Source: Jimgerdemannia flammicorona
Taxonomy: Eukaryota
Reading direction: 5' to 3'
Length of the DNA: 34,476 bases
NCBI GenBank assembly: GCA_003990765.1
Contig: RBNJ01000274.1
Span: forward strand, 1 to 34,476
Under the pieces are notes generated by a model that did no database searches, was not told the origin of the DNA, and saw only the letters and a list, made by a program, of their open reading frames with translations. A program made the translations under genes and the position numbers. Of this stretch, positions 780 through 28,773 are shown piece by piece; position 1 is the stretch's first letter, and each line of letters opens with the position of its first letter.

Positions 780-1219
780 TGTAATGTAGCAGATATATAA
801 CTATATAAGTATATCAGATTTCTATATTTTGAAAACTTGATCTTCTTTGACTCTATAGAGTTCTTGAGATGCAGAAGTGGGTGAGTTCAAAGTATATCTA
901 TCTATAGGCTTACTAGTTCCTTTACTTTCTCTTTGCTTTAAATTATTTTGATCTAAGGTTTATTTACTCTAGATACTGAGATATTTATACAAGTTTGCTA
1001 ACTATAAGGTAGCTAAGTTATAACTACATTTTCTATAAGTTATTTTCTATAAGTATAGATCCTCTATATCTATAGAATTTCTATATTTGTAAAGTTTCTA
1101 TATTTGTAAAATATGATTACTATTTGTAAGACTATACTATATTTAGAAATCAGATTTAAGCACTATAATCAAATATCTATTTTTTTGATTTATATTCCTA
1201 ATTTGGATCAACCATCACA
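780..1219 (-). repeat. Element A 3' LTR
   Basis: TGTAAT...ATCACA termini. Aligns along its length with 18820-19259 and 33246-33732. Minus-strand TATAAATA at 982-989 with AATAAA shortly downstream. Confidence 0.92.
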
Positions 1220-1708
1220 ACTTCCTCCTAAATAGATAATTTATATATCTCTAAAATATTTTATTTACTCAAACTCCAAAGTCTCTATAAGCTATATCTC
1301 CTTATACTATATAATCTATACTATTATATTTTCTTAATAATATCTTCTAACTTATATAAAGTCTCCTAGAACTACTTTATAAAAGTGAGCTAGGGCTGGC
1401 TCATTCTCCTTAAATAACTTATATACTTATTTAGCAATAGCAATCTGAATGTAGAAGAGCTGATACTCTCTAATTCATTCTTCTTTTCTCATCTCTGATT
1501 ATGAATTCAGTGTCTGTCCCAACTTGAAGTATTCTTGAAGCTCTGTCCAATTCTGATAGATCTTGAAGTGTAAAATTCATGACAGATGTATCTGTACTAT
1601 ACTTTGGATGCTGTCAAAAGATTTCTCTATTATGGGTGACTTGGTAGTATACTATTGTCTTTCTATAACTCATTGTACAGCATTAGTAATCTTGAGGGCT
1701 GTGGTCAT
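1208..1708 (-). pseudogene. Accessory ORF of element A in the env position (167 codons, internal stops), unknown function, resembles the LTR-embedded ORF of element B
   Basis: One frame from ATG 1708 (MTTALKITNAVQ...) through ...LQEYFKLGQTL...IAIAK*VYKLFKENEPALAHFYKVVLGDF... with no frameshift. Stops are compatible with C>T/G>A changes. The true C-terminal stop is uncertain. Confidence 0.65.
1220..1230 (-). other. Polypurine tract of element A
   Basis: Minus strand TAGGAGGAAGT immediately precedes the LTR TG at 1219. Confidence 0.75.
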
Positions 1709-2897
1709 ACTTTATTGACTAGCTATGATACTTCTTAAGTCAGTTTTGGTAAATGGTAGTAGAGATCATTATATCTGAGAGTTTTCATAGCCAAAAGGTA
1801 GTTCTTTTTATATCTTGCACAGGATAAGATCCTTTCTACTTGAGCTCTAGTTTTTATGACCATAAAGCTTTTATTATATTCTGATATACTAAGACTTTAT
1901 CTCTTATCTTGATAATCTCTAAGAGCTTGTGAATCTTTTCTGCATTATTCTATTATAGTACCTGCATCTTTATATAATCCTCAGTCTTCTTGCTGATTTG
2001 GTATAATCTCTATATTTCCATATCTATATATTTCTATACAGTATCTCTATTGAATAATAGAGTTTCTTGAGACTTTTTTCTCTGAATAGTATTTCTCAAG
2101 AGGTAAAATGGGTGCTTTGTAATCAGATATCTCAAAGAGCAGATAATACTATTGGCAGATAGTGATTCTAGTTTTTATAGTTATTACAGATCTTAGTAAT
2201 AATATTCTTAAGAGTCTTGTTAGTTCTTTCTACTTATCTATTTTTCTATAGGTGATAAGCTATAGTCCAAATGTACTAGATCTTGTACTTCTTATAGAGA
2301 ACCTCAAAGAACTGGTTTATGAATTCCATTCCTCTGTCTATAGTTACTTATATTGAGATCTTAAATTGACAGATGATTTCTTTATAAAAGAAATTGACAA
2401 TTGACTATATATATATTAGCTTTTTTAAGAGATCCTGTTTCTATCTATTTTATAAAAAGGTCTACAACAATAATGATATATCAGTTATCAGTTAATATCA
2501 AGGATAGAGGGCCAATTACAATATATATAAAGAGTACTGATTCTATATATACTAATCCTGGAATCTGATTTTGTTAGTTTTGTTTCTGTTTCTAATATTT
2601 ATCATAAGTCTTGATAAATAATCTAATGTCTTCCTCCATTTCTGGTTACTATATTATTCTTCTTACTTTATCATAGATATTTGTTTCTCCTAAATGATCA
2701 AGTTTATATACTGATTTCATTGCTTGCTTCTTGTATTTGGATATAACTAGTAGCTTTTCTTTTCTTACTATTTCTTCATCAGTCTTAAATTGTTTCTATA
2801 TTCTGTTGATAATTATTTATATCTATTCTTCCAGATATTGGGACATCTTTTGCTGTCCCAGATAGATGATAATTCTATAGTAGAGTTTCTTATTCAT
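1683..2897 (-). pseudogene. Integrase of element A
   Basis: Begins MNKKLYY and is collinear with element B integrase, including the (D)..GPL motif near 2510 and the terminal TFWL.KLS...LKKY segment. Many stops. Confidence 0.85.
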
Positions 2898-3940
2898 AGT
2901 TGATTTGCTGATTGATTGGAGGTCCTTTAGAGTATTTATAAGAGAGTATCTATATTGATATTGGTTTTTTCAGAGTAGTATATAATAGTTACATCATAGG
3001 CTTGCAACTTTATAATCTATTTGACATAGATTCCTTTGAGTTATTCAGTGGTCAGTAGCTAAGTAAGAGTGGAGTGGTCTGTTTGGATAGTGAAGTATCT
3101 TCCTGCAAGATAGTAGTAGAACTTCTCTATAGTCCAGATAACTGTGAGATATTCCAACTTGTAGGATTTATACTCTTTTTCAGCTTCTTGAGTTCCTCAG
3201 CTAAAATATGAAATAATATATTCTACTTTATCTTTCTTTTAGGCCAAGATGCCTCCTAGTTCTTGAATACTTACATCTGTCTGTAGGATGAATTCTTGAG
3301 TCCAATTGTGTCTTCTAAGGTTAGGTACTTGGGTCACCCTGATCTTGAGCTTATCAAATACTTTTTGTTGTCTACCAGTCTATTGGAACTTGATATATAT
3401 TGGACTTGCAATATTGGAGAATCCTTTAATATATCTGTAATAGTATAAGATAAGTCTCATAAAGGCTTGGGCTTTAGTGATAGTGGTGGGCCTTAGGTAT
3501 ACTACTACTGCCTAAATCTAAAGTAGATCTGTATGTATTCTATCTTAGTTAATGATGTGACCAAGATAAGAGATCTTGATTTCTACAAACTTATACTTCT
3601 TGGGCTTGATATAAAGACTATACTGTCTTAGCTTCTCTATTATCTGCTAGATGTACTGCAGATATTCTTCAGCTATCCTGCTATAGATAATAATATTATC
3701 TATATAAACCATTATCTATCTTTCTATATTATAGTAGAAGATTTTGTTCATTATTTACTGAAAGCTTACTAGTGTATTGTATATTCTAAATAGTATTTAC
3801 AGATAGATATAGATTTCAACTGGAGTAATGAAGACTAATTTTTTACTTACTGTTTCAGTGAGACCAATTTGATAGAATTCTGAGTATAAATCCAAGGTAC
3901 TATAGTACTGTACTTCATCTTCCAGAGTTATAAGAATATC
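2894..3940 (-). pseudogene. Element A pol: C-terminal RT and RNase H
   Basis: YYSTLDLYSEFYQIGL and VYIDNII (decayed YxDD), then FILQTDVS and FTIQTDHS RNase H motifs, ending in a NADALSR-like segment. Confidence 0.88.
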
Positions 3941-4404
3941 TGTAACAATTTCACAGTCATATTTAGTCTTTGTACATTTTTATATCTTTTAGTTAGTCTT
4001 TTCTTATCATTTATTGAATATTCTACTATGTTTCACCACCTTCTACTTACTTAGAAACCTCCTCTCAGTACCTAGACATCACTAGAAAATTCTTGTCTTT
4101 CCTTGGCACCAAGTATCTTGACTTAGCTAGTTATGGAATCTTTCAGAACATTGTTGAATAGTATTAGTCAGCTTTGCTAAGAACTCATTTCTTGGCATTT
4201 CTCTTTCTTTCCAAGATCCTTCAAGATCTTCCTTTCAGATTATGTATAAATATCCTTATTCTCTGCCTAAATAAAGCTCAGAATATTTTCTCCCAGAAAT
4301 CCTTTGAGAATACTTGAATCTTTAAGTATCTCTTTAAGCTACTTTAGGCCAACTAGAACTTCCAGATTTAGCTACTTTCTCTTAATGAAACTAGAATTAT
4401 TACA
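3941..4404 (+). repeat. Element C 5' LTR (464 bp)
   Basis: TGTAAC...ATTACA termini, TATAAATA at 4245-4252, AATAAA at 4270-4275. Four homologous copies in the window. Confidence 0.95.
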
Positions 4405-4406
4405 CT

Positions 4407-4420
4407 TGATAGCAGTGGTG
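4407..4420 (+). other. Primer-binding site of element C, probably initiator tRNA-Met type
   Basis: TGATAGCAGTGGTG 2 nt after the LTR. D has TAGTAGCAGTGGTG (6112-6125). Consensus TGGTAGC resembles the complement of the tRNA-iMet 3' end (GCTACCA). tRNA identity is inferred. Confidence 0.6.
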
Positions 4421-4494
4421 TTGTTATATCTTACCTTATTAAGAAACCTCACACAAATCCAGAAACCAGTCACAACTAGTCACACAAATCTGAA

Positions 4495-5682
4495 ATGAGC
4501 CACAAAGAATCAGTCTATCAACCAGACCTCTCTGCTATAGAAAAAGCAGGAGGATAGCAACTCAGCATAGAAGATATGATCAATACTATGGCCCACCAAA
4601 TCCAAGAACTTCAAGTACAACTAGAACAGCAGAAAACACAAACTATAAGTACATTATATTCTGCTATAGTATCAGCTAGTTTTAAGCTACTCAAGCTAGA
4701 TATCTTTGACAGCTATCAAGAAGGACTACATGGACCTTCCAGTTAGACCAATACTTTGAGCTCATAAGAATGAAAGATGATATACAAGTCCAATTTGCTA
4801 CCACACTTCTCTGAGGAAATGCAGCTATCTGGTAGTATAATCATATCATAATTATGTACATATATATACTTATATGCATGAATCAGAGATTGGGAAGCTT
4901 TCAAGAGAGCCCTTCATAAGCAGTTCAAGTCTACTAATGCTACCAAGCTAGCCAGGGACAAGCTAGTGAACATAAAGTAACTCAAGTCTGTACAAAGCTA
5001 CAATGCACAATTCCTATCAATCCTACTCAAGCTATCAGTAATATCCAAGAATGAAAAGATAGACTACTATATCTGAGGTCTGAAGGGAAATATATGAGTC
5101 AAGGTTGAGCTAGAAGAGTCCAAGAATCTTGATGAAGCCATAAGAATTGCCAATAGGTTTAATGTTATTACCTTTGGTAACTGCTTTGAAGCAGAATGCC
5201 ACAAGAAGAACTACTTCAAGAACTGTCACAAGAACTAACCAAGGACAGTTGGCCCAGCACTAATGAACCTAGACACTATAAATAAAAAGAATACTAAGCT
5301 CACCCCTGAAGAAAAGGACTACCTAAAGAAATCTGGAGCCTGTTTCTTCTGTTGCCAAATAGGACATATTGCAACCAAATGTCCTAAGAAGAATAGTGAA
5401 TTCTCAAGACAAGTTATCATATTGTCCAAGAATACATCTGTCAACTCCACCACCAGTCAACCTGAGCTCAAGATCAAGAAGCTTCATCCAAAGACCCAGA
5501 CCCCTCAATATCAAATAGAAGGAGCTATTGGCCTTGACCTACACTCAGTCAAACAAGTCACTATTCCAGCCAAGGGCCAAATTCTGGTGCCTACTGGAAT
5601 TGCAGTTCAATGTCCTAAAGGACATTATGCCAGAATTACACCATAATCAGGACTCAGTATTAAACATCATTTAGATATAGAT
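4495..5682 (+). pseudogene. Element C gag with CCHC zinc knuckle and N-terminal part of dUTPase
   Basis: ATG at 4495 equivalent to D 6200. ORF 5263-5646 contains CFFCCQIGHIATKC followed by LKIKKLHPK..GAIGLDL..LVPTGIAV..GHYARI (dUTPase motifs I-II). Confidence 0.9.
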
Positions 5683-6109
5683 TGTAACAATTTCACAGTC
5701 ATATTTGGTCTTAGGATATTTTTTGCATCTTTTAGCCAGCCTTTTCTTGTCATTTCTTGAACATTCTACTATGTTCTGGTATCTTCTACTTGCTTAGAAA
5801 CCTTCACTCAGCACCCAGACACTACTAGAATATTCTTATCTTTCCTTGGTACCAAGTATCTTGTCTCAGCTAATCATAGAACCTTTTGGAACATTGTAGA
5901 ATAGTATTAGTCAACTTTGTCAAGAACTTATTTCTTTGCATTTCTCTTTCTTTCCAAGATCCTTCTGGATCTTTCTTTCAGATCATATATAAATATCCTT
6001 GTTCTCTGTCTGAATAAAGCTCAGAATATTTTCTTCCAGAAATTCTTCAAGAATACCTGAATCTTTAAGTATCTCTTTGAGCTACTTTAGGCCAACTAGA
6101 ACTGTTATA
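5683..6109 (+). repeat. Element D 5' LTR (427 bp, 38-bp deletion near 3' end)
   Basis: Homologous to the other three C/D LTRs but lacks the segment between two AACTAGAAC direct repeats. Confidence 0.93.
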
Positions 6110-7171
6110 CTTAGTAGCAGTGGTGTTTTTACACTTTACCTTATTAAGAAACCTCACACAAATTCGGAAACTAGTTACAACTAGTCACATGAACCCGAAA
6201 TGAGTCATGAAGAGTCAGTCTACCAGCCAGACCCCTCTACTACAGAAGAAGTAGGAGAATTGCAGCTCAACATAGAAGATATGATCAATACTATAGCCCA
6301 CCAAATTCAAGAACTCCAAGTACAACTAGAACATCAGAAAATACAAACTATAAGAACATCACATCCTGTTATAACACCAATCAGTTTCAAGCCACTCAAG
6401 CTAGATATCTTTGATGGCCATTGAGGAGGACTATCTATAGATATATAAACCTTCCAATTGGATTAATACTTCAAGCTCACAAGAATGAAAGATGATATGT
6501 AAGTCCAATTTGCTGCCATACTTCTCTGAGGAAATACAGCCATCTAGTAATACAATTATATCATGGTTACATCTATATACTCATATACATAAATCAGAGA
6601 TTGAGAAGCCTTCAAAAGAGCCCTTCACAAGCAGTTCAAGTCTGCTAATATCACCAAGCTAGTCAGAGATAAGCTAGCAAATGTTGAGCAACTCAAGTCT
6701 GTGCAAAGCTATAATGCACAATTCTTGTCAATCCTACTTGAGCTACCAGCAGTATCCAAGGATGAAAAAATAGACCACTATATCCAAGATCTGAAGAGAA
6801 ACACATGAGTCTAGGTCAAGCTGAAAGAGCTCAAAACTCTTAATGAAGTCATGAGAATCACTGATAGATTTGATATTATCATCTTTGACAACCACTTCAA
6901 ACCAGAATGCTATAAAAAGAACTACTTTGAGAACCACCACAAAAACCAACCAAGGACAGTTGGCCCAGCACCAATGGACTTAGACACTATGAACAAAAAG
7001 AACACCAAGCTCACCCCTGAAGAAAAAGACTACTTGAAGAAATTCAGAGCTTATTTCTTCTGTCACCAAATAGGACACATTGCAACCAAATGTCCTAAGA
7101 AGACTAGCAAACCCTCAAGACCAGTCACTGTATTGTCCAAGGATACACCTGTTAATCTCACTACCAGTCAA

Positions 7172-7588
7172 CTTGAGCTCAAGGTCAAGAAGCTTCATCT
7201 GAAGGCCCAGGTCTCTCAATATCAAACAGAAGGAGCTATTGGTCTTGACCTACACTCAGTCAAACAAGTCACTATTCTAGCTAAGGGCCACACTCTAGTG
7301 CATACTGAAATTGCAGTCCAATGTCCTGAAGGACATTATATTAGAATTGCACCACAATCAGGACTCAGTGTCAAACATCATTTAGATGTAGACACTGGTG
7401 TTATTGACCCAGACTTTCAAGGACAAGTTTAAGTCTTGCTTGTCAACCAGAAGGATTAAGACTATATGATTAAAGAAGGAGACTGAGTTGCACAAATGAT
7501 CCTGGAAAAAGCCAGTCAACTCAAGATTATAGAAGTCCAAGAACTCCCTGAAACCAAATAAGATCAAAAGGGTTTTGGTAGTACTGAT
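7172..7588 (+). pseudogene. dUTPase domain of element D, between zinc knuckle and protease
   Basis: All five trimeric dUTPase motifs recognisable: GAIGLDL, PQSGLS (RSG), TGVIDPDFQG, G D * VAQMI, DQKGFGSTD. Confidence 0.92.
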
Positions 7589-10500
7589 TAAGCAGTAAGT
7601 TATAGTGAAAATCAAGCTCAAGCTATGCTCATTTTCAAAGGCCTAGTCAAAGGAAAAGAAGTTCAAGTACTCATAGACAGTGGAGTTGCAGAGAACTTCA
7701 TCAATCAGAATCTCATCAAAAACCTCAAGATCCTCATCAAGCCTGCACCCAAGAACAATAGTATAGTTACTGCAGATAGTACTCTGCACCCCATTGAGTC
7801 AATTGCCACCAAACTGCCCATCAAGATTCAGAAATATTGGGAATGAGTTGACTTCAAGGTTGCACTACTAGGAGATCATAACCTGATCTTAGAAAAACCC
7901 TGACTTACAAAACACAATCCAGACATTGATTGGTGCAAGAATGAAGTCACTCTACTTCAAGATGGAGTCAAAATTATGATCAAGACAGACAAGACCATGA
8001 GCAAGACCCAGATTGCAACACTGTCAGCTATATAGTATAAGAAAGTACTCAAGAAGGCAATGTATACCTTTGTTGTAATGATCTACCCCAAGAAACAAAA
8101 CAAGAGACTATCAGTTAATGAAAGCATCAAGCTACTGCTAGAAGAATTCAAGGATGTCTTTTCAGACAAACTAATGGGTCTACCACCTACATAAGAAGTT
8201 GATCATGGAATTGAACTGACCCCAGGAGCTGTACCACCCAAGAAATACATATACTGCATATCACCACTCGAAATTGAAGTAGTCAAGAAAGAACTAGAAG
8301 AACTACTTATATAAAGAGACATCCAGCCAAGCAAATCTCCTTATGGTTCACCAGTCTTATTTATCAAGAAAAAGGATGGTACCTTGTGAATATGCATAGA
8401 CTATCATGCACTCAACAAACTCACTGTTAAGAACTACTATCTGCTACCCTTAATTGATCAAATCTTTGATGCTCTCAAGAATGCCAAGTACTTCACCAAG
8501 TTAGACCTCATGTCAAGATACCATCAGATTCGAATCAAGCCAGAAGACATTCCCAAGACTGCATTCATGACTGCCTTTGGACTCTATAAATTCCTGGTCT
8601 TAGCATTTAGTCTCACCAATGTACCCACCACATTCCAGACTCTGATGAATAAGATATTTAAGAACTAACTATTTATTTTCCTATTGATATATCTTAACAA
8701 CATCCTGATCTTTAGTACAACTAAAGAAGAACACCTCAAACACATTCAAATAGTCCTAGAGATCCTGTGAAAACACAAGCTTTATATCAAGCTCAAGAAG
8801 TGTGAATTCTTCAAGAAACAAGTTGAATATCTTGGCTACATTGTCTCTGTACAAGGAATTCAAGTAGACCCATATAAGATAGAAGCAATTGAAGAATGTC
8901 CCATTCTGTCAAATCTCACAGAACTCTGATCCTTCCTTGGTCTAGCTGGCTATTACTGCTACTTTGTCAGAAACTTCTCTGGTATTGCTGAGCCACTGAC
9001 TAACCTCATGAGGAAGGTCCTGCACTCAGACCACTATATACCCTATACTTGGGACCTCTTCTGTCAACAAGCTTTTCAAGAACTCAAGAACTGCCTAACC
9101 CATACTCTAGTCCTGTATAATGCAGATCAAGGTCTAAAATTCATAGTCACCACTGATGTATCAAATTTTACCATTAGAGTAGTCCTGTCACAAGATGATG
9201 GCAAAGGACATCATTCTATTACTTTTAAGTCCTACAAGCTGGCCCCAGCTGAGCTACTCATGAGAAGGAACTACTAGCAATAATATATACACTAGACCAC
9301 TGACAATACTATCTAGAAGGTATTGAGTTTGATGTCATTACTGATCATCAATCTTTTAAGTATATCAATACTCAACCTACTCTGTAATGTCTACAAGCCA
9401 AGTGGAGCCTCAAGCTTCAAACCTTCAACCCGACAATCATCTACAAGCCCAGCAAGACACTTGTAGTACTAGATGTCTTATCAAGGTGCCCAGACCTCAC
9501 TACAATCATGCAAGTCACCTTGGCATCAGAATTCCTAGACCAAATTAAGCAAGCTTATAAAGAAGACACAGTTGCCACTAGAGTTTTCTTGAATGAACTC
9601 AAGGATACATATACTGTTGAGAACAATCTGATCTATCATCAAGATCAAGTCTACCTACCTGAAAACATGAACCTACACTACAAGGTTTTGTAAGAACACT
9701 ATGACTCCCCTCTTACCAGTTATCTGGGAATTGAGAAGACTATTAAGAACATCCAACACCACTACTATTGGCCAAACATGATCAAGGAAATCAAGAACTA
9801 TATTGCCAGCTGTGATCTATATTAGCACAACAAGTCTACCAACCAAGCACCTATCAGTTTGCTATAACCACTGCCAATTCCTATCAAGAAGTTCGAGCAA
9901 TTTACTATGGACTTTATAACTCAACTACCATAAACTCAATCTGGTGCTGATGCTATCATCATATTTATTAACTGCCTGACCAAGACTATAGTTGCTAAAC
10001 CAACCACTACCAATGCTACTACACCTGAGATTGCAAGAATCTTCTTCAAGTCCATCTTCTATCACTATGGTCTACCATAAGTAATTGTTAGTAATTGCGA
10101 CCCCAAGTTCACCAGCCACTTCTGGCAAACCCTCTTTAAGACTCTGGGAACTCAATTGGCTATGTTTACTGCCTTTCACCCACAAACTGATGGACAAACT
10201 GAGTACATAGACAGAACTCTAGAACAAATTCTTAGAAACTATATTTCTTATAAGCAAGATAATTAGGACATCTACCTGACTTATGTAGAGTTTGTATACA
10301 ACAATGCTGTCCAATCATCTACTGGTCTTTCCTCTTTCCAGTTACTCCATAGTCAAGATCCCAAGACCCCTGCAAGTCTATTCTCTTTCAAGAAAACCAG
10401 TCAAATACAAGTCCCAATGATCAAGAACCTTACAGACAAAATAGACAAACTACTTAAGATTGCTACCACAAACCTTCAGAAGGCTCAACAGCATCAAGCC

Positions 10501-10785
10501 AAGTATACTGACAAGAAATGCCATGATGTTACTTATACTATTGGAGATCAAGTCCTACTGTCTACTGAGAACCTCAAGATACAATCTCAAGTCAACTGCC
10601 CTTCAAATAAGTTCCAACTCAAGTATATTGGACCTTTCAAGATTACTGAATAAGTCTCTGCTTCCTCCTACCACCTCAAGCTGCCTGAAACCATAAGAGT
10701 ATACCCAGTCTTTTATATGTCACACCTCAAGACCTGGAACCAGTCACCACCCTACTCTGATTGAATTTCTAAGCCTTCTACTCCT

Positions 10786-10983
10786 GTGATTATTGAAGAC
10801 CATATTGAGTATAAAGCTGAGAAAATTCTTGACAAACGAATCCACTACCACTGTCCTGAATACCTAGTCAAGTGGATGGGTTATCCTGAATATAATGTTA
10901 CCTGGGAACCACTGGTCAATCTCAAAAACTCTCAAGATCTAGTTCAAGAATTTGAGGCAAAATACATTGCCCAATCTCTATAG
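10786..10983 (+). pseudogene. Integrase-terminal chromodomain of element D (C copy at ~15146-15342)
   Basis: EYKAEKILDKR...EYLVKWMGYPEYNVTWEPLVNLKNSQDLVQEF matches the chromodomain consensus, including aromatic-cage residues. Confidence 0.92.
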
Positions 10984-11284
10984 TGACTTTCTTGGATTGT
11001 TGATAACCTATAGCAATAACCAGTATCTTATGTATCAGAAGTTTACTTTGGGACACCGGAACCAGTAGAACATTTAATGAATAAGAAGTCTACCAAAATG
11101 AAGCTACTAGCTAGGTTCAAACCCCTCCCAGTTGATTAGTCTGATAATAGGCCCTCTGCTCTATATGAGGATGGCCAATTCCCACCAATATGCCAATTCA
11201 AGTTTGAGAAATTTTGGTTAAGTATATCTAGTCTTGTATTACCTAAGAACTCAATGAGGATATTGGTTCTTAAGAAGGAAGAGA

Positions 11285-11749
11285 TGTAATAATTTTACAG
11301 TTATATTTAGTCTTAGTATATTTTTTGTATCTTTTAGTCAGCCTTTTCTTATTATTTCTTAAACATTCTACTATATTCTAGTATCTTCTACTTACTTAGA
11401 AACCTTCTCTCAGTGCCCAGACACTACTAGAACATTCTTATCTTTTCTTGGTACCAAGTATCTTATCTCAGCTAGTCATGGAACCTTTCAGAACATTGTA
11501 GAATAGTATTAGTCAGCTTTGCTGAGAACCTATTTCTTGGCATTTCTCTTTCTTTCCAAGATCCTTCTAGATCTTTCTTTCAGATCATATATAAATATCC
11601 TTGTTCTCTATCTGAATAAAGCTCAGAATATTTTCTCTCAGAAATCCTTCAGGAACACCTGAACCTTTAAGTATCTCTTTGAGCTACTTTAGGCTAACTA
11701 GAACTTCCAGATTTAGCCACTTTCTCTTAAAGAAACTAGAACTGTTACA
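11285..11749 (+). repeat. Element D 3' LTR (465 bp)
   Basis: TGTAAT...GTTACA termini, preceded by PPT AAGAAGGAAGAGA. Confidence 0.95.
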
Positions 11750-11754
11750 TAGGT

Positions 11755-14700
11755 ACTGGTATCATTGACTCAGATTTTTAAGGGTAAGTTCAAGTTCTAC
11801 TTATCAACTAGAAGGATCAAGACTACACAGTTAAGGAAGGAGACCAAGTCATACAAATGATCCTAGAAAAAGCCAGTCAACTCAAGATTACAGAAGTTCA
11901 AGAACTCTCTGAAACCAAACAAGATCAAAAGGGTTTTGGCAGCACTGATCAAGTAGCAAGTCTTAGTGAAAATTAAGCTCAAGTTATGCTCATTTTTAAA
12001 GGCCTAGTTAAAGGAAAAGAAGTTCAAGTACTCATAGCCAGCAGAGCTGCAGAGAACTTCATCAATCAGAATCTCATTGAAAGCCTTAAGATTCTCACTA
12101 AGCCTGTACCCAAGAACAATAGTATAGTCACTACAGATGGTACTCTATAACCCATTAGTCAATTGCTGCCAAACTGCCTATCAAGATTCAGAAATATTGG
12201 GAATGAGTAGACTTTGAGATTACACTACTAGAAGATCATGATCTGATCTTAGAAAAACCCTGGCTTACAAAACACAACCCAGATATTGATTGGTGTAAGA
12301 ATGAAGTCACCTTACTTCAAGATGGAGCCAACATTATGATCAAGACAGACAAGACTACAAGTAAGATCCAGATTGCAACACTGTCAGCTATATAGTACAA
12401 GAAAGTACTCAAGAAGATAATACATGCCTTTATTGTAATGATCTATTCCAAGAAACAAGACAAGAGACTATCAGTCAATGAAAGCATCAAGCTACTACTA
12501 GAAAAATTCAAGGATGTCTTTTCAGACAAGCTATCTGGTCTACCACCTATATAAGAAGTTAATCATAAAATTAAACTGACTCCAAGAGCTGTACCACTCA
12601 AAAAACACATATACTGTATGTCACTACTCAAAATTGAAGTAGTCAAGAAGAAACTAGAAGAACTACTTATACAAGGAGCCATTCAGTCAAGTAAATCTCC
12701 TTATAGCTCACCAGTCTTATTCATTAAGAAGAAGGATAGTACCCTGTAAATGTACATAGACTATCATATACTCAACAAACTCACTGTCAAGAACTGCTAT
12801 CTACTATCCTTAATTGATCAAATCTTTGATACTCTCAAGAATGCCAAGTACTTCATTAAGCTAGACCTTATGTCAGGATACTACTAGATTTGAATCAAGC
12901 CAGAAGACATTCCCAAGACTGCATTTATAACCTCCTTTGGACTTTACAAATTCCTGGTCTTAGCATTTGATCTCACCAATGCACCCACTACATTTCAGAA
13001 CCTAATAAATAAGATATTCAAGGACTAACTATTTCTTTTCCTATTGGTATATCTTGATGATATTCTGATTTTTAGTACAACTAAAGAAGAATACCTCAAA
13101 TATATTTGAATAATTCTGAAGATTCAGTGAAAACACAAGCTTTATACCAAGCTCAAGAAGTGTGAATTTTTTAAGAAATAATTCAAATATTTTGACCACA
13201 TTGTCTCTACATAAGAGATTCAAGTAGACCCATACAAGATAGAAGCAATTGAAGAATAGACCATTCCATCAAACCTCATAGAACTCCAATCCTTCCTTGG
13301 TCTAGCTAGCTATTACTACTGCTTTGTCAGAAACTTCTCTAGCATTGCTGAGCCACTGACCAACCTCATGAGGAAGACTCTACACTCAGACCACTATATA
13401 TCCTATATCTGAGACCTCTTCTATCAACAAGCCTTTCAAGAACTCAAGAACTGTCTGACCCATGCTCCAGTCCTGCATAATGCAGATCAAGACCTAAAAT
13501 TCACAATCACCACTAATGTGTCAAATTTTACCATTAGAGCAGTTCTGTCATAAGATGATGGCAAAGAACATTACTCTATTGCTTTTGAGTCCTATAAGCT
13601 GGCCCTAGCTGAACAAAAGCTAGCCACTCATGAGATGGAACTACTAGTAATAATATATACACTAGACCACTGGCAATGCTATCTAGAAGATATTGAGTTT
13701 GATGCTATTACTGATCATCAATCTCTCAAGTACATTAACACCCAATCTACTCTGTCATGTTTACAAGCCAAGTAGAGCCTCAAGCTTCAAACCTTCAATC
13801 TGATGATCATCTACAAGCCTGGTAAGACACTTGTAGTACCAGATGTCTTATCAAGATATCCAGACCTCACCACAATCATATAGGTCACCTTGGCATCAGA
13901 ATTCTTAGACCAGATCAGATAAGCTTATAAAGAAGATACAGTTGCCACTAGAGTTTTCTTGAATAAGCTCAAGGATACATATACTGTTGAGAACAACCTG
14001 ATCTACTATCAAGATTAAGTCTATCTATCTGAAAACATAAATCTATACTATAAGGTTTTGCAAGAACACTATGACTCCCCTCTTGTCAGTTACCTGGGAA
14101 TTGAGAAGACTGTCAAGAACATCCAACACTACTACTATTGGCCAAATATGGTCAAGGAAATCAAGAACTATATTGTCAGCTGTAATCTATATCAGTGCAA
14201 CAAGTCTACCAACTAAGTTTGCTATAACTATTACTAATTTCTATCAAGAAGTTCGAGTAAGTTACCATGGACTTTATAACTCAACTACCACAAACTCAAT
14301 CTGGTGATGATGCTATCATCATATTTGTTGACCACTAGACCAAGACTATAGTTACTGAACCAACCACTACCAATGCTACTATACCCAAGATTGCAAGAAT
14401 CTTCTTCAAGTCCATCTTCTGTCACTATGGTCTACTATGAGTAATTGTCAGTGATCATAACCCCAAGTTCACCAGTTACTTCTGGTAAACCCTCTTCAAG
14501 ACTCTGGGAATTCAATTGGCTATGTCTACTATCTTTCATCTACAAACTGATAGACAAACTGAGCATATGAACAGAACTTTAGAACAAATGCTCAGAAACT
14601 ATGTTTCTTACAAGCAAGATAATTAGAACCACTATCTGACTTATATAGAGTTTGTATATAACAATGCTATCCAATCATCTACTGGTCTTTCCCCTTTTCA

Positions 14701-15342
14701 GTTACTCCACAGTCAAGATCCTGAGATCTCTGCAAGTCTATTTTCTTTTAAGAAAAGCAGTCAAATACAAGTTCCAACTACTAAGAACCTTACAGACAAA
14801 ATGGATGAACTACTCAAGATTGTTACTGTGAATCTTCAGAAGACTCAACAGCATCAAACCAAGTATGCTGACAAGAAACACCATAATGTCACTTACACTA
14901 TTAAAGATCAATCCTACTGTCTACTGAGAACCTCAAGATATAATCTCAAGTTAACTGCCCTTCAAACAAGTTCCAATCCAAGTATATTGGACCTTTTGAG
15001 ATTACTGAACAAGTCTCTGCATTCTCCTATCACCTCAAGCTACCTGAAATAATGAGAGTATATCCAGTCTTTCTTGTATCACACCTTAAGACCTGGAACT
15101 AGTCACCACTCTACCTTAGTTGAATTTCTAAGCCTTCTGCTCCTGTGATTATTGAAGATCATATCAAGTATGAAGCTGAGAAGATTCTTGACAAACAAAT
15201 CCACCACTGCCATCCTGAATATCTAGTTAAGTAAATGGGTTACTCTGAATATGATGCTACCTGGGAACCACTGGTCAATCTTAAGAACTCTCAAGATCTA
15301 GTTCAAGATTTCAAGACAAAATGTATTATCCAATCTCTATAG
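11755..15342 (+). pseudogene. Element C remainder: C-terminal dUTPase, protease, RT, RNase H, integrase, chromodomain
   Basis: Collinear nucleotide homologue of D 7394-10983, with YLDD near 13049-13060. Many stops and small indels. Confidence 0.92.
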
Positions 15343-15647
15343 TGACTTTCTTGGATTGTTGATGACCTATGGTAAAGACCAGTGTCTTATACATTAGAAG
15401 TTTACTTTGGGACCCCAGAACCAGCAGAATATTTAATAAATAAGAAGTCTACTAAAATGAAGTTATGTACTAGCTGAGTTTGAACCCCTCTCAGTTAGTT
15501 AGTCTAATAATAGGTTCTCTGCCCTATACAAGGATGGCCAATCTCTGCCAATGTGCCAATATAAGTTTGAGAAATTTTGGTTAAGTATATTTAGTCTTAT
15601 GTTATCTAAGAACTCAATAAGGACATTGGTTCTTAAGGAGAGAGGGA

Positions 15648-16111
15648 TATAACAATTTCACTATCATATTTAGTCTTAGTATATTTTCACATCTTTTAGT
15701 TAGTCTTTTCTTATCATTTCTTTAATATTCTACTATGTTCCACCACCTTCTACTTGCTTAGAAACCTCCTCTCAGTACCCAGATACTACTAGAACATTTT
15801 TATCTTTCCTTAGTATTAAGTATCTTGGCTTAGCTAGCCATGGAACCTTTCAGAACATTGTAGAATAGTATTAATCAGCTTTGTCAAGAATCCATTTTTT
15901 GGTATTTCTCTTTCTTTTCAAGATCCTTCCAGATCTTTCTTTCAGATCATATATAAATATCCTTGTTCTCTATCTGAATAAAGCTCAGAATATTTTCTTC
16001 CAGAAATCCTTCAAGAACACTTGAACCTTTAAGTATCTCTTCAAGCTATTTTAGATCAACTAGAACTTTCAGATTTAGCTGCTTCCTCTTAAAGAAACTA
16101 GAACCATTACA
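15648..16111 (+). repeat. Element C 3' LTR (464 bp)
   Basis: TATAAC (TG>TA)...ATTACA termini, PPT AAGGAGAGAGGGA at 15635-15647, followed by TSD ATATC. Confidence 0.95.
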
Positions 16112-18705
16112 ATATCACTGATAAGGAACAGTAGTTGGTAATCCTTCTTTGTAGCCAGGTTGAGCTTTCTGTAATTGATACAGAGTCTTGGGGCAAATTC
16201 TTCTAATTTGCTTCCTTTTTTTAGAGTCAATATGACTGGTGAAGTCTAAGGACTGCTAGCTTCTTTGATGATACCAACTTCTTCCATCTGCTTGCTTTCT
16301 TCTCTAAGCTATTCACAATAGGCTGATAGAATTGGTCTTACTTTTTTGTAGATTGGTTCAGTATCTTCTATATCTATATCATGATAGTAATGTGGAATCT
16401 TTTCCTTGATATCCTTGAAGTCTGTGGCTAGGATATCCTCGAATTTATAGAGTATCTTCTTGAGTTCCTTCTTGAGTGGAAATTTATTTCTGATAGTGTA
16501 GCTATGCTTATTTGTGGTTTCCTCCTTCTTGTGATCTAGTTCTGTGATCTTGGTACTAGTAAATACTCCTCTTTCAGTAGATCTGAATCCTTTCTTTCCT
16601 CTTTCTATTTTCTCCAACTTCTTGACTTCTATGATCTTTGGCTGAAGAACTGGGAAGATCAACATCTGTATCAATCAGTTCTTCTTCTTGATTGGAAATA
16701 GAATTATAGAGTTGTAATTTCTAGCAATGAGTAGTATTTTCTCAATATAGTCTGAATCAATGACTTCTTCTTCAATAGTAATCTCACTTTTGGCCAGGCT
16801 GCTTCTTATCTTGAGGATCCCAACATAGTCCTTTGAAATGGTCATTTCTAGACCAGTTATAAGTAGAATGGTTGTCTGAAGCTCTAGTATAGTTTTCTCT
16901 ACTATAGTGATATCTATTCCAGCTATATTCTCTGACTTATATTCTAGTAGAACTGTATTAAGGTGGATTTTCAAATCTTGATCTTGATTTCTTCTTCATC
17001 ATCACTGTCCTCTAAGAGGGCTGGTGGTTTGTCATCCTCTTCCTCCTCCTTTTTTATCTTGTCTGTTTCTCAAGAGTCTTCTGTCATCTTTTATGATAGA
17101 TTTTCTTTATTCTGCTGATACACTGATAGCAATCATCAATATATTTCATATAGTACATCTTGATTCTATAAGGACAGACTTCTTGTAGTATATATCCTTT
17201 AATGATTCTTTTGCACCATTCTTCTTTACTGATCCATTCAACTTTCTTTTTCTTTTTCTGAGTAGTTACCATATAGGCTTCTTCTTGCTTACTTTCTTCT
17301 TCCTCTATCTCAGACAGCACTCTTTTATTGATATTGATTGGAATTTATATCTTCTGACCTCAGTAGATGATCTGTATCTTCTGAGTATTTAGATTGATTA
17401 TTACTCTGACTTTGTGAAGCTACTGATTGCTAATTAGGATATCTTGGATCTTTTCCAAAAGTGTAGCTCTTATATCATCTGCTATGATGAATACTAATTT
17501 AGTTACTTCTTCAATCTCTCAACCTAGGTAATCTGTTGCTTTCTTGCTGAGGATACTTGAAAGTCTTGGTTTTGTGAAGTTCTTCTCCTTTTCTCCTTTA
17601 CTGACTGAGATAGTTCTTTAAATAATATCTTGAACAGCCTATTCTAGCTCTATATCTTGATCTATTTCTTTATTTTAACTTTCTATAGTAGTTTCTATCT
17701 ATTTTTCCACAGAGTTCTTCTTAGGTCTCTCTGGTAGTCTCTTATAGAGTTTGCTTGCAGACATCCTTCTTAACAGTCTCAGCAGAGTAGGCTTTCTATT
17801 CTTCTTTATCTGATTCCCCAATCTCCTTGAAGATAATAGTGTTGACCTATTTCTTATTCCTTATAATATTACTTAGCTGAGCCTTGTATTTGATTTTACT
17901 CATATATTCATATAAGTAGTAGCCTTCTTCTTCACAGGTATAGCAGATACCTCTCTTTTTGTCTGAGATGATAGCAAACTTCTGAACTGAGTAGTGCTCT
18001 CTTCCTCTAATTTCCTTTACTACATCTCTAAGATAGATAGTCATTTTGACAAACTTCTTAACAAGTTCCTCTATAGGATTGCTATTTCTCTATTACTCTG
18101 TAGCTCTTGACTAAGATGTGTTTTGATTGATCACTATGGTAGAAATTATACTGATTGCCTTGAGTGCTTCAATTCTAACTCCAGTAACTCTTTCTATTAT
18201 ATAATCTTATAGATATCTGGCTATCTAATATTACTAAGTATAGGGAATCTTTTATACTAGATTCAAGACTACTAGTGATGAGCAGATGGCCAGAGTTATC
18301 TCTGAGTAGACTTTCTTCATCAGCTACTTGATCTCAGATAGCAGCAGCATAATCTATAAGAATTATCTAATATTGAATTCTAGTATAGAATGTGTTTGAA
18401 TCCTTGCTTATTTCTTGATAAGTTATATTGAGCTGATTCTTTATGGCTTACTTGATCTTATCTATATAGTAGGTGGTTCAGAGCCAGGTCTTCTGTTCTA
18501 TTAGTATAGTATTAGTATTATTTTCTATATAGGTTATAGCTGTAAATACTGCTCTTACAGGACCTTGTAGACTGAAGGACATGAGGGCTACTTGCTGTAC
18601 TACTATCAGAGTCCTTATAGTAGTATACTGCTAGAAATCATCAATGAATGTGATGATTAATTCATCTGAGATATATCTATAGAATACTAGTGATCTCATA
18701 TCCAT
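16112..18705 (-). pseudogene. Element A gag, partial protease, dUTPase (~16575-16975) and N-terminal RT
   Basis: ATG 18705 (MDMRSLVFY, parallel to B MEMCPSTFY); decayed knuckle ICYTCEEEGYY; protease C-terminal half; dUTPase AGIDI, IRSSLAK, VIDSDY, RGKKGFRST; RT start PRLCINYRKLN. Confidence 0.88.
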
Positions 18706-18819
18706 CTTGTCTAGATGTCTTAATTTGATTTATATGATTGTTTAAGTGGTAGCAGTTGTTCATTGTTCAGCTTAAAAGTGAGGAATTCATCTGGAATCAC
18801 CAGTCAATAGACACTAAGT

Positions 18820-19259
18820 TATAATATAGTAGATATGTAACTATATAAGTATGTCTGATTTCTATATCTTGAAAACTTAATTTTCTTTGATGCTACAGAG
18901 TTCTCAGATTGTAGAGATAGATGAGTTTGAAGTATATCTGCCCATAGACTTACTAGTTCCTTTGCTTTCTCTTTACTTTGAACCATTTTAATCTGAGGTT
19001 TATTTACTCTAGATACTGAGATATTTATATAAGTTTTTTAGCTATAAGATGGCTAAGTTATAACTATGTTTTCTGTAAGTCATTTTCTATAAGTATAGAT
19101 CCTCTATATCTGTAAAATTTCTATATTTGTAAAGTTTTTATATTTATAAAATATGGCTACTATTTGTAAGACTATACTATATTTAGGAATTAGATTCAGG
19201 TGCTATAATTAAATATCTATTTCTCTGATTCATATTCCTAATTTGGATCAACTATCATA
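18820..19259 (-). repeat. Element A 5' LTR
   Basis: Homologue of 780-1219, with adjacent PBS-like sequence at ~18799-18816 shared with element B. Confidence 0.92.
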
Positions 19260-19739: not shown

Positions 19740-21066
19740 AATTTAAAAAACTTCAATATATTGCTAATTCTAATGATAAAGAAGAAGCAGAACTACTAAA
19801 GATAGATTTATATGAGAAAGATGATAATTTTAGTATACCAAATAGTAATACTGATAATATTAATCAAACTTCTAAAGATGAGTATGTTCTAAATTCAACT
19901 TTATATTAGATTAGTAAGTTGAATAGATATAGTATTTCTGAGATATTATAGAAAAATGAAAAAAATTTATCAAAGAGATTAACTGGATATATATTATTCT
20001 TAAAGAACTATAATTATTTAATATTCTATATAGATAAGGACATCTTTCTATAAAACTCTCTGATGAGCTTCTTTATAAATTTGCAAATAACAATTTGACT
20101 ATAAAGGAGAAACTTATTCAGTTTTAGAATATATAGCAAATATATAAGATTCTTGATATAGCTATAAGTACTAATATAGTAAATATTTGAGTTATATATA
20201 ATATATAAAGAAAGATTTATAGAGTTTAATCTACATTTATTTATAAGAATTTCAAATTAAAAAGTCATAAGTATGAAAGTTGGAGAGGTCCTATAATACT
20301 ATATTATTATAATATGATTGCTCTGATACAGAATATAATAAGTAATTCAATATTTAAAACTATATATCATTTACTATAGTATACTATTTCAAAAAGAAAG
20401 ATATTTACTGATATAGTGAAATTCACTAAAGTATATTCTGATGGGAAATATAGGTAAGTAAATAGTTTTAAGATTATATATTAAAATTCTAGAGCTAAAT
20501 AAAGTAAGTAATATTATATTTCTAAAACAATTTTGAAGCTAGTATAATAATCATTTCCATTCTTCTTAAAATAGATAAAATATATATCAATCTTCTAGGA
20601 TGAACAAAAATGTATTCTCTTTATATAATAATTGACAACATATACAAAAGAATCTAAAAAAAATATTCAAGAAATACATATTAAGTTCTTGCATACTTTT
20701 CTATATTAGAGAGTACTAAAATTGAATAAGAACAGTCTGTATTCAGACTTGCAAAATAGAATCTATATCACCTTTATATGATGGAATATTTAAAACTAAT
20801 TAATTTAAATATCTCACTTTTAACTATTCTTCAATTATTTTTATAGAGTATATATTATAAAGAGATCTGATAGTAAGCTCTAGAACTACTATCCTGTCTT
20901 ATTTTTAATAGTTATAAACTATCCTGAATTATGCTTATTAGTACTAGTATATTCTAAAATAGTTTGCTCAATATACATTATACCTCAGGAGAAATTTGAT
21001 AATTTATCTTCAATATTTGCATTTTAGGATCCTATTTTAATATTGAGAGCAATTCATGATATGTAT
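19740..21066 (+). pseudogene. Plavaka-type DNA transposase, N-terminal and central part (decayed)
   Basis: Manual translation: YYYNMIALIQNIISNSIF; IIISILLKIDKIYINLLG*TKMYSLYIIIDNIYKRI*KKYS..VLAYF..AK*NLYHLYM; SDSKL*NYYPVLFLIVINYPELCLL..CSIY. These follow the order of Plavaka motifs as I recall them (PIILxSDKT..PxYLTIGNI..ADYPEQCL..CPxC). Start coordinate is approximate. Confidence 0.75.
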
Positions 21067-21625
21067 TGTTATGTAGTGGTCACTGAGTCCTTCAAATATG
21101 CCAGATTCTCTTCAAGGTATATCTCTTAGACTAACTCAAGTTTGTTATAAGCAAATTCTTATTAAAGTACCTTTCCAAGGTCTTATAGTTCTCAAACTTC
21201 TTATTTTTAACTATCTTGTTATCTCTTAGATTGCTTGTAAGGAAGTATATATATTGCACTAAGAAGACTATATTATATACATTGTCATATAGTGAATATT
21301 GAGTCTTTCAAATACATCAGATTCTCTTCAAGATATATCTCTTAGACTAACTACAAGTTTGTTATAAGTAAGTTCTTATTGGAGTGCCTTCCCAAGATCT
21401 TATAGTCCTCAAAATTCTTATCTTTAAACTGTCTTATTATCTCTTAGATTGCTTGCAAGAAAGTGTATATATTGTACTGAGAGAAACTAACTTCATTTTA
21501 GAGGAAATAAGAGGGGTGTTTATACAAAATATAATTCAATGGTTGCTAAGATATAAAGCTAAATATAAATTCTAATAACTAAAACTACAAAGTTCCAGGG
21601 TTGGCACTGATAGTTGTACAGATTC

Positions 21626-21826
21626 AGGATGCTGGTATAATTCAGTATCACATCAGAATACTGGTGCTGGAACAATTTCACATTATCTCAGAATGCCAGT
21701 GCTGGTATTATCCAGTGTTACATCAAAATACCAGTACTGGAACAATTTTGCATCACCTCAGAATGCCAGTGCTGACATTATCCAGTGTTATATCAAAATT
21801 CCAGTGCTGGCATTATTCAGTGTAAC
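21626..21826. repeat. 35-bp tandem array (~6 units) in B 3' LTR
   Basis: Units start at 21626, 21661, 21696, 21731, 21766 and 21801 with core CCAGTGCTGG. Confidence 0.9.
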
Positions 21827-21833
21827 AAAGAAC

Positions 21834-22621
21834 TTAGAGCAGAAAGTTCAGGACCATGGGGGCTTCAACCTCATCATTACTGAAGGAGATGAGATCTGCG
21901 AATTCATCATTTTCATGTGCTTCGATGTTGCACAGGATGACATCATTGCTGATGATGTCATCATGTTTGGCAGGAAAATTGGGGGCTCTCCAATCTATGA
22001 GATTCTCTTCCACAAAATAAGGAACAAATGTGGGGTCTTGGGGAGGTCTAACCTGGATGCTTGGGCCTTGGAATACTGAGATCAATCCTTGTAAGAATTG
22101 ATCTGAGTTGTCCTGAAGGATGGAATACCAGAAGTCTTCTACTTCATCACTATTGAGAGTGATAGTGGACTGGGCTTCTGTAGCTACCCTGGCTTCTAGT
22201 GCATTGATACAGTGGGATGACAGGTCTCTGAAGTCTGAGACTCTAACATACTCCAAGTTGGGATCAACCATGGTGCATGCCTGAAGATCTGATGGATCTT
22301 CTTAGCTGTTCTTATCTCATATATATTCATAGGAGTGACATCTTATAGTTCTTGAGGGCTAGCCTGTGGGAACTCCCAGCAGAGGAGGTTTCCTATTTTA
22401 TACTCCTGCCACATTTGGAGGCATTCAGTAGCAATGGTGATCCTTGTTTCCATTTCATGGTAGTAGAGGATAAAGTGATAGAGATCTGCAGTACTCAGGT
22501 TGCCACTAGGAGTCCTTCTTAAGTGGGTTCTCATGGCTCTTCTGATGTCTTGGAATATCCTTTTCTCAACTGAGATGCCTTAGTGATTCCTTGACCTTGA
22601 GGTTTGGTGGGCAGCAGGCAT
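21834..22621 (-). pseudogene. LTR-embedded accessory ORF, B 3' LTR copy (stops plus a 1-bp deletion)
   Basis: ORF-track pieces 22343-22534 and 21834-22271 match the 5' LTR copy. ATG at 22621. Confidence 0.8.
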
Positions 22622-23177
22622 TTTATTTGTAGTAAGTCTTTGAGCTATTTTGGGATTAGTGGGTCTTGTTGGTTGCTGCTACTGTAGTTCCTTGATCCTT
22701 CTTTTATATTCCTCAAGATACTCATACTGTGGCCACAATGACTCACAGTTGGTCATCATTGCTCATCTCATATGCTGTATGATCTCCTTGTGCTCTGATC
22801 TGGTGACTTGTGAGGAAAGGCTGTTTCCTATGCTGATGTCATCATTCTGAGATCACTGTTACATCTTTTTCCTGAATAAGGATCTTCTTGATCATCCTTA
22901 TTCATTGGTCTAGTCCTGAAAAATTTGCTGATCCCATAACCTCTAACAAGGGGTTGAAAAGTGGTATTTATGGGCTGGCATCTTCCCTTTATATTTTGGT
23001 ATGATGGTGAAGAGTCGCTCCCTTTATATAGAGCAAGGGCCTGATTCTGATCTTGACCAATCAGTTGATGGTTCAAACTTCTTTGACTTCAAAAGTCTCA
23101 TAGATGAGTAGTTGCCAGTGCCATATCTCTTAGAGAATGGTCCAGACAGATAGCCTGCTAGTCATAGGACATGTTGT

Positions 23178-24424
23178 TATAATTCACAGACTAGAACCTT
23201 GTGGGTGGTCATCACATTTTACTTCTCTTGTATAGATTCATAGTACTTCTTGAGTTCCTATATACTATAGTAGGCAGTATGGTCCCTGAGATTTTTCTAA
23301 GCCAGAAGGTGGTTCCCTTGATATCTTATATATAGAAGGGTCCTTCCCATTTGGGCTCCAGTTTTCGTAACCATGAGGCTTCTACTATATTTCGATACAG
23401 TAGAACCTTTTCTTCAATTCAGATGAGTTCTAGGGCCTTGTGATTCTTTTCCACATTCTTCCTTATTAGTACTTGTGACTTGGTGATATAATCTTTAGCC
23501 TTCTTCCTGATTTGGTGTACATAGTCTCCGGATTTCTATATCAACCCATCTCCAGATTAGGTCTAGATTTGTGGCTGAGGTTCCATCAGAATCTTCTTCT
23601 CCAAAGAGCAGCTCTCTTGGGATAAAGTGTGTGCTCTGTGACTATATGTCTCATAGGATAGAGAGGGCAGTTGGGAGATAGTTATCCCAATTCTCATATA
23701 TCTCTGATATTTTCACTAGAATGTTCTTGAGGGTCTTGTTGGTTCTCTCTGTCTGTCCATTTCCTTGAGGGTAGTATACAGTGGTCTTGATGTACTGGAT
23801 CTTATATTTCTGATATATTATCTTGTGGAATCTATTGACAAATTCCATGCTGTGGTCTGTTGTGATTTGCTTTGGTGTCTTGTAGTAGCAGATGATTTCT
23901 CGGTGCAGAGAGTTAGCTATAGAGAGGACATTGGCTTCTTGTAATACTCCTGCCTCTATCCATTTGGTGAAGAGGTCTACAATAACTATAATATAGCAGT
24001 TTTCTGATAGTGTTACTGGTAGTGGCCCAATGATATCCATTGCAATGTGGTGGAAGGAGATAGGCTTAATTCTTGATGACCTGGGTGCCTGGTCTTGCTG
24101 ATCTTGTTTCTGTTTTTGGCACTTGTTACACCCTTTGACAAATTGGTATAGGTCTTCTTCTATCTTGGGCCACTATATAGTTCTTCTTACTTTGTCATAT
24201 ATATTGGTTCCTCCTAAGTATCCTTGCTCATGTACTTCCTTCATTACTTGATACTTCTTGTGTTTGGATATTACTAGCTTTCCTTCTTTTCTGAGTGTAG
24301 TATTGTCTAGTTCAAACTGTTTCCAAGTCTGGTTGATGATGGTGATTGTCCAGAGTTTAAAGTAGTTGGGAATCTTCCACTGCCCAAGATAGCTGATTAA
24401 TCCATAGTATAGCTCCTTATTCAT
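23178..24424 (-). pseudogene. Integrase of element B
   Basis: MNKELYYGLISYLG; H..GYLG..CNKC; MDIIGPLP, VDLFTKW, ITTDHSMEF, PQGNGQTERTNKTLK; KLEPKWEGPFYI (GPY/F). No chromodomain. Confidence 0.92.
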
Positions 24425-27400: not shown

Positions 27401-27886
27401 ATATCTCTGTGCAAAGACCACTTTCTGATCAAGGGTCAGCACAGCTGGGGTAGACTGGATTGCTAGGGCAATTTCAGAGTAAACTCCTTTGAGGAAGGTT
27501 AAATCTGCTATTTGTTCCTTGAGGTGGTCATCATAGCTAGCCAAGATAATCTGGTGACAGATTTAGATATAGAATAAGTTGGGATCTTCACTAAGTCCCT
27601 GGCAGATAGTATTGAGTTAATCCTTGAGAGCTTGCTTGATCTCTTCTGTATAATATGTTGTTCTGAGAAAGACTTTCATATTGACAAGTTTGGCTGCACC
27701 AGTATCAGTAATGGTAGCTGTATTGAACTTGTCTCTGGCAGGTCCTCTGAGGCTAACTAGTAGAAGAGCTAATTGAGCATCCATACCAAGGGCTCATATG
27801 GCAGTAAATTGTTCAAAGTCTTCAATGAAGGTCAGGATTAACTATTCAGTAGTATATCTATAGAATGTAGAGGGGCACATTTCCAT
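24417..27886 (-). pseudogene. Element B gag-pol: Gag, CCHC knuckle, truncated protease, dUTPase, RT, RNase H
   Basis: ATG 27886; CFRCGEEGHYAKSC; AIIDTGTG; dUTPase in ORF 25584-26261; YYTTLDLFSGFHQI, MPFGMYNAPASFQ, FLGLASYY; ILQTDAS, QTDHSAL, NADALSR. Confidence 0.93.
25915..26330 (-). pseudogene. dUTPase domain of element B, between protease and RT
   Basis: LKVKKFHPEAKIPEYKTKGVIGMDL, KTRSSLAK, GGVIDSDYTGEI, DRIGQML, RGEQGFRSTG correspond to motifs I-V. Confidence 0.92.
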
Positions 27887-27985
27887 CTTATCTTAAATTC
27901 TTGCAGGGGTGACTCTTATAGTCAGGGTAGTTATTGTAGGGGTTGTTTGTTTTTCAGCTTAAAAGTGAGGGATTCATCTTGAATC

Positions 27986-28003
27986 ACCAGCCAATGGGCA
28001 CCA
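27986..28003 (-). other. Primer-binding site of element B (shared with A family)
   Basis: TGGTGCCCATTGGCTGGT 3 nt from the LTR end. The TGG start is complementary to tRNA CCA. tRNA species not assigned. Confidence 0.75.
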
Positions 28004-28431: not shown

Positions 28432-28464
28432 TTTATTTCAGAGGAAATAAGAGGGGTATTTATA
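28432..28464 (-). promoter_or_regulatory. Candidate LTR TATA box and polyadenylation signal of element B
   Basis: Minus-strand TATAAATA (28457-28464), pyrimidine tract, then AATAAA (28432-28437). The same arrangement occurs in the A and C LTRs. Confidence 0.65.
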
Positions 28465-28766: not shown

Positions 28767-28773
28767 AAAGAAC

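Follow-up and report, generated by a model that had tools for sequence, protein, structure and literature searches.

A contig of 34,476 nt from Jimgerdemannia flammicorona (RBNJ01000274.1, assembly GCA_003990765.1; the whole stretch is referred to here as the window) carries two decayed long terminal repeat (LTR) retrotransposons, elements A and B, each with the remains of an additional gene. In A this gene follows the integrase, in the position of an env gene, and in B it lies within the LTR itself. The locus raises the question of whether the two are members of one gene family, how such a gene could come to lie on either side of the LTR boundary, and what its product might do. Both elements are on the minus strand and were identified as Ty3/gypsy retrotransposons by their LTR pairs, primer-binding site (PBS), polypurine tract (PPT), target-site duplication and the order of reverse transcriptase (RT) before integrase; by integrase and RT (~70% identity) they are sister families. 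The 231-Mb assembly is AT-rich, repeat-rich and eukaryotic, and all of the elements in the window have decayed through C-to-T change, with CpG observed/expected ratios of 0.00–0.06 and ~93% transitions among the differences between paired LTRs (54 of 58 in one pair, 146 of 155 in the other).

We first consider the gene in element A. The initial annotation described a minus-strand frame at 1708–1208, beginning at an ATG that overlaps the last integrase codons. The motif reported for it, QEYFKLG-x27-AK-x22-DF, is indeed present, but the frame is not open, since it contains 13 internal stops. A natural relative of 153 amino acids aligns end to end on 1726–1268, followed by a stop at 1267–1265, and because full-length relatives of this size map on that interval the gene must start six codons upstream of the ATG at 1708. 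The start codon, at 1726, is now ATA and overlaps the end of the integrase frame. The codon at 1708 is threonine in intact relatives, and the ATG found there is most likely a product of C-to-T decay. So delimited, the gene (1265–1726, minus strand, 153 codons plus stop) has 12 internal stops and lies between integrase and PPT on the pol strand. The PPT (1220–1229) is found ~35 nt past the stop and is followed by the non-coding 3′ LTR (780–1219), which has a TATA-like box at 991–982. The last 19 codons of the frame first quoted do not belong to the gene, as they follow its stop, cross the PPT and enter the LTR. A 4-nt insertion near 1248, also past the stop, is missing from 25 of the 29 other aligned copies.

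The frame is conserved in younger copies. A DNA search recovered 30 A-like copies; in 17 of them no indel disrupts it, and the positions of their stops vary. When the A protein was compared with the genome (150 of 2966 candidates were scored), 31 of the top 50 matches proved stop-free, and nine stop-free metagenome proteins were present among 452 candidates collected with a profile of A-like copies. Selection was assessed from transversions, because these are untouched by cytosine decay, and in all eight pairs compared between A subfamilies the transversion pN/pS was 0.17–0.23, indicative of purifying selection. We conclude that the accessory gene is a genuine part of Ty3/gypsy elements and that the A frame in the window represents a dead copy.

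In element B the gene is located in the U3 region of both LTRs, again on the minus strand. The copy in the 5′ LTR (gene 28774–29562, LTR 28007–29804) spans ~262 codons from the likely start with two internal stops, whereas that in the 1.8-kb 3′ LTR (gene 21834–22621, LTR 21067–22863) is interrupted by stops and is shifted in frame by 1 nt near 22262. A third, more diverged B-type LTR (30303–31839, minus strand) retains a decayed gene at ~31601–30755. The motif QEYKIG-x28-AK-x22-DF is found in the 5′ LTR frame, which reads ...FRYAPWSISNLEYIRISDF; the B peptide quoted initially turned out to be a composite.

The proposal that these genes form one family, internal in A and LTR-borne in B, was examined by comparison of profiles. 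Those built from the decayed A and B copies alone did not match significantly (hhalign E 0.059, probability 0.9%), and significance needs undecayed relatives. When these were used, A and B matched with E values of 1.2e-4 and 8.7e-5 over ~104 columns, and the profile score of 35 compares with a maximum of 23 among 25 column shuffles. A further element family of the genome, D, serves as a bridge, matching A at E 5.7e-6 and B at E 6e-18. Moreover, a profile lacking any A sequence matched the A frame of the window at E 1.2e-8 (positions 1352–1690), although one built from B and D only reached just E 0.11. The direct similarity of A to B is thus weak and is strengthened through D and two other families, G and H; taken together, these comparisons support a single gene family.

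In family D each of the paired 2-kb LTRs, which lie ~10.3 kb apart, contains a 358-amino acid open reading frame (ORF), and G, the integrase of which has a chromodomain, has a 365-amino acid ORF in the LTR. The ORF of H, 170 amino acids long, is placed after the integrase and before the PPT and, like the A gene, has a start that overlaps the end of the integrase. Matches of the core profile reached E 1.9e-6 for G and E 7.9e-7 for H, but family-to-family scores for G were not significant (E 0.03–0.23). A search with the A profile of 1.84 billion representatives gave six hits, including two more distant metagenome families, P0024 and P0025, that match A at E 3–4e-9; a further hit, P0026 (E 2.6e-4), was dropped as a repeat protein matched over only 40 columns. 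Common to the families is the signature Y-x-[IL]-G, with [AT]-x-[RK]-[ILV]-[YH]-x-[LI]-F ~30 residues further on, and a helical core of ~130 amino acids recurs in five element families (A, B, D, G and H) of this genome. A very decayed frame at L037:2081–2467 (minus strand), matched by the core profile at E 0.002, is possibly a sixth.

How, then, does the position of the gene differ between families? A and H have it as a sense ORF on the pol strand, after the integrase and before the PPT. The U3 of B, D and the chromovirus G contains it, the TATA box lying further on (in the 5′ LTR of B a TATA-like box lies at 28466–28457, ~310 nt downstream of the gene), and since the box is downstream the ORF is not transcribed from the main start of the 5′ LTR. 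Both LTRs carry the ORF in B and D; for G it was seen at 3′ and apparent solo LTRs only. Given the established life cycle of LTR elements, the genomic RNA carries the gene at its 3′ end in every case: it is the last gene before R in all five families, and only the side of the PPT differs.

The initial annotation suggested that the long LTR of B may have arisen when the PPT/U3 boundary moved upstream of the gene, and that gene position be mapped onto an RT phylogeny. We mapped it instead onto an integrase tree, from which row A2_L146 and three decayed or redundant rows were left out. In this tree ((A,B),(D,H)) is separate from (C,G,X), C being an element nested in A, which implies that gene position changed at least twice. 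The accessory protein tree conflicts with it, as the B protein groups with D (92/92) and the B integrase with A; constraining B with D on the integrase tree was rejected (p-AU 2e-4), while constraining A with B on the accessory tree gave a borderline p-AU of 0.047. PPT type follows pol, the junctions of subfamily A2 and B being identical over 16–17 nt despite the opposite placement of the gene, and D and H sharing a G-rich type. The A and D LTRs have in common a TATA/poly(A) (AATAAA) block of 61 nt that is 88% identical despite an RT identity of ~45%. This block was noted at L069:706–766, L144:4308–4368 and L197, and a similar one is visible in H.

A comparison of A subfamilies identifies the unit that is exchanged. 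Between them there are 0–5 transversions per 100 nt through the integrase and 8–16 from the start of the gene to the PPT; divergence is higher still in U3 and returns to 1–2 transversions per 100 nt at the TATA block. This low-high-low profile shows that ORF, PPT and U3 were swapped as one block, with sharp breakpoints at the gene start and at the TATA/R block. Recombination of such a 3′ cassette, by template switching during reverse transcription, could account for the location of the gene inside or outside the LTR, and B may have formed by the joining of an A-like gag-pol-PPT to a D-like U3 in which the gene was present beforehand, with no sliding of the PPT.

From these sequence comparisons we infer that cassette recombination fits better than a shift of the PPT to upstream of the gene in an A-like ancestor (or the reverse), which we regard as a distinctly unlikely origin for the long LTR of B. 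In favour of a shift, A and B are sister families, the gene of one being homologous to that of the other but located across the PPT from it; the same junction sequence could result if the PPT were duplicated and the old one then lost; and the test against grouping A with B is only borderline. However, no remnant of a PPT is seen after the ORF of B, D or G, BLASTN found no match between A and B LTRs, and the ~370-nt spacer between integrase and PPT in B (22874–23240, upper limit approximate), where A has its gene, contains no accessory-gene match and is non-homologous. In addition, the core proteins of A and B are only ~15–27% identical as against ~70% for RT, whereas B and D align over ~190 columns including a C-terminal extension that A does not share, and the integrase tree calls for at least two changes of position.

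We next addressed the nature of the protein. A first AlphaFold model, from A sequences only, had a pLDDT (predicted local distance difference test) score of 56 and gave generic helical matches only; with the joint alignment this rose to 88.9, as would be expected of one fold, and the model is all helical. Fold searches with the confident model returned no significant match, which does not imply that the fold is novel. The weak rows that stand out, for VirB, SopB and DUF3102, all DNA binders of helix-turn-helix (HTH) type, cover model residues 60–153 with scores within background; over this region the order of helices is like that of the ParB/KorB/SopB/VirB-type HTH proteins and DUF3102, which are prokaryotic and gave no Pfam match. 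The predicted HTH-like core helices are at 61–75, 81–88 and 92–105. Searches of Pfam, PHROGs, PDB sequences, phage sequences (tblastn) and the ESM Atlas gave no named family for the accessory proteins. A match to ORF6C was not accepted (best E 1e-4, in four of 23 decayed B rows and from frame upstream of the likely start), nor was one to ATG5_HBR. By composition B, D, G, H, P0024 and P0025 have an acidic region, and most relatives end in acidic-aromatic tails.

Taking the HTH-type fold rows, the acidic-aromatic tails and the co-inheritance of gene and U3 together, our best guess, held tentatively, is that the accessory protein is an HTH-like transactivator of its own LTR. The HTH-like core would bind the U3 of the element and the tail would recruit transcription, and the gene would therefore travel together with its target. 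In A and H expression could proceed by re-initiation or from a subgenomic RNA, whereas B, D and G would use a subgenomic RNA. That the protein is a nuclear regulator at all is the least certain part of this proposal. The tail is marginal, and nearly absent, in A. A candidate palindromic operator scored above shuffles in three of five A1 copies and some H copies, but not in B or D; LTRs of C, which lack the gene, and two controls from pol scored above shuffles just as well, and the palindromes were rejected as evidence. The wider suggestion, of a family of LTR-specific transcription activators with a fold unmatched in PDB that travels with its target U3 between chromoviral and non-chromoviral Ty3/gypsy lineages, is rather less likely.

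Transactivation ranks ahead of anti-silencing, and that in turn ahead of RNA handling. An anti-silencing factor would bind its own element and shield it from host cytosine methylation and C-to-T decay, as VANC of the plant VANDAL transposons reportedly does. The near-complete loss of CpG and the preponderance of transitions described above testify to strong host pressure, fast turnover and swapping would suit an arms race, and the premise of DNA binding is common to the transactivator reading; yet the protein has no similarity to known anti-silencing domains and the A gene is under purifying rather than positive selection, and we consider this role unlikely. More doubtful still is a helper that binds element RNA for nuclear export, translation or packaging. 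Such a helper would be like CERV of Cer1, which sets a precedent for Ty3/gypsy elements that encode a new kind of nuclear accessory protein (PMC10309623). RNA binding is within the scope of helical folds, and a cluster of phage translation repressors is among the ESM feature neighbours of both A and B (0.93 and 0.80), though these serve as leads only; but the gene is swapped with U3 and not with the leader or gag-pol, and the core has no arginine-rich RNA-binding stretch. Finally, it is highly improbable that the protein is env-like or a movement protein, or that the frame arose by chance and its motifs by convergence. In A and H the gene does occupy the place of env, and direct A–B similarity is weak. 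Against these readings stand the selection on the gene, its stop-free relatives in genome and metagenomes, the shuffle-controlled matches and confident joint fold, the presence of only 1–2 cysteines, and the lack of any hydrophobic segment, signal peptide or transmembrane helix in ten accessory proteins (maximum Kyte-Doolittle 19-mer 0.03–0.39 in A and no more than 1.15 overall), which bears out the earlier statement that this is not a classical env; searches of Pfam, PDB and BFVD listed no similarity to viral fusion proteins.

The remainder of the window is occupied as follows. The 5′ LTR of A (18820–19259, minus strand, as are all parts of A and B) is followed by the PBS and differs from the 3′ LTR at 58 positions over 438 aligned nt. 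Next come the leader, gag, protease and dUTPase part (16112–18819) and the RT-RNaseH-integrase part of pol (1727–3940), both decayed, the latter interrupted at ~3941, within RT, by the nested C array (3941–16111, plus strand). The array is Tf2-like, with LTRs of ~460 nt, and is a tandem in which LTRs are shared, the four copies being at 3941, 5683, 11285 and 15650. The integrase of C clusters with chromovirus integrases, its dUTPase is placed between zinc knuckle and protease, and no accessory-gene match was found in it. B is flanked by an ATAC target-site duplication; the PPT (22864–22873), upstream of the accessory gene, precedes the 3′ LTR, and the decayed internal region (23241–28006), with PBS after the 5′ LTR, gag (CCHC knuckle), dUTPase, RT and integrase, makes up the rest. 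An A-like LTR at 32871–33760 (minus strand), 73% identical to that of A, has a PBS and leader and no body, and its block of short U3 repeats is larger.

Several further observations concern the elements themselves. In B, ~215 nt of R/U5 at the LTR end are tandemly duplicated (21056–21482 and 27997–28422), and 35-nt repeats separate the ORF stop from the TATA box (21630–21826 and 28570–28766). B LTRs arranged head to tail, in tandem or nested, are frequent and carry the ORF in each (loci L085, L088 and L092). The 8-kb internal region of D (L127:3014–7838, L133:5791–8988) has a long proline/acidic frame before gag and several hundred codons of unassigned frame between protease and dUTPase. Antisense stretches of the integrase-PPT spacers of G, B and D (L184:784–1215, L083:2128–2500, L144:2377–2705) looked tRNA-like by eye; this was not confirmed by Rfam (seven loci) or ARAGORN (15 loci). 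Comparison of the window elements with locus L069 indicates that in old copies decay extends past CpG sites (A pol has CpA 0.79, TpA 1.15 and a GC content of 30%), which suggests a second process, either like repeat-induced point mutation or involving non-CG methylation.

Coding sequence in or overlapping U3 has viral counterparts in sag of mouse mammary tumour virus and lentiviral nef, the products of which act on host immunity. B, D and G resemble these in having U3 coding sequence upstream of TATA that is copied into both LTRs, but we found no sequence or fold link to the accessory family. Tas/Bel1 of foamy viruses is a 3′ accessory gene product that transactivates its own LTR. The likeness here would be that of a 3′ gene with a proposed DNA-binding core and acidic tail, which in our case are predictions; no homology was found, and A is nearly without the tail.

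Extra ORFs after pol, their sharing between lineages and the swapping of U3 are already published (PMC7264820, PMC5408684, PMC10787394, PMC6894440, PMC3485330, PMC10309623). Among retrotransposons, additional ORFs in sense orientation may follow pol and precede the 3′ LTR (aORF-3S); the reviewed cases are env-like, some with transmembrane domains (PMC7264820). A and H are similar to these in position, orientation and retention over many copies; our protein differs in having no transmembrane domain, and the sections of that paper available to us describe no U3-internal homologue. The ORF3 types of bdelloid rotifers are common to unrelated retroelements and are enzymes or fusogens (GDSL, DEDDy, env; PMC5408684); the accessory ORF in distant lineages, several with dUTPase, and the modular exchange are alike, whereas here an unnamed helical protein crosses the PPT. 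In crapaud of Podospora, variation is mainly in U3 upstream of TATA, with subfamily recombinants, and the element is described with gag and pol ORFs only (PMC10787394), while the block exchanged here holds a selected gene. Recombination associated with RT, with recombinants between subfamilies, is likewise documented (PMC6894440). Retrosat2 of rice combines long LTRs with a fast-evolving extra ORF, ORF0, which is upstream of gag-pol and so neither at the 3′ end nor in U3 (PMC3485330). Within the library searched, no published description of the accessory family was found.

Retrotransposon LTRs are treated as non-coding, and genes within them are missed by annotation tools. In this genome an unnamed protein family, under purifying selection in A, is encoded before the PPT in some and after it in others of five element families, and moves as a unit with U3. 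The A copy in the window is itself dead, but the A1/A2 pair, with near-identical integrases and different gene-plus-U3 cassettes, constitutes a natural experiment on self-activation under heavy cytosine decay. If the proposal is true, each solo LTR of the LTR-borne form would retain a copy of the gene, so that thousands of loci could supply the protein in trans.
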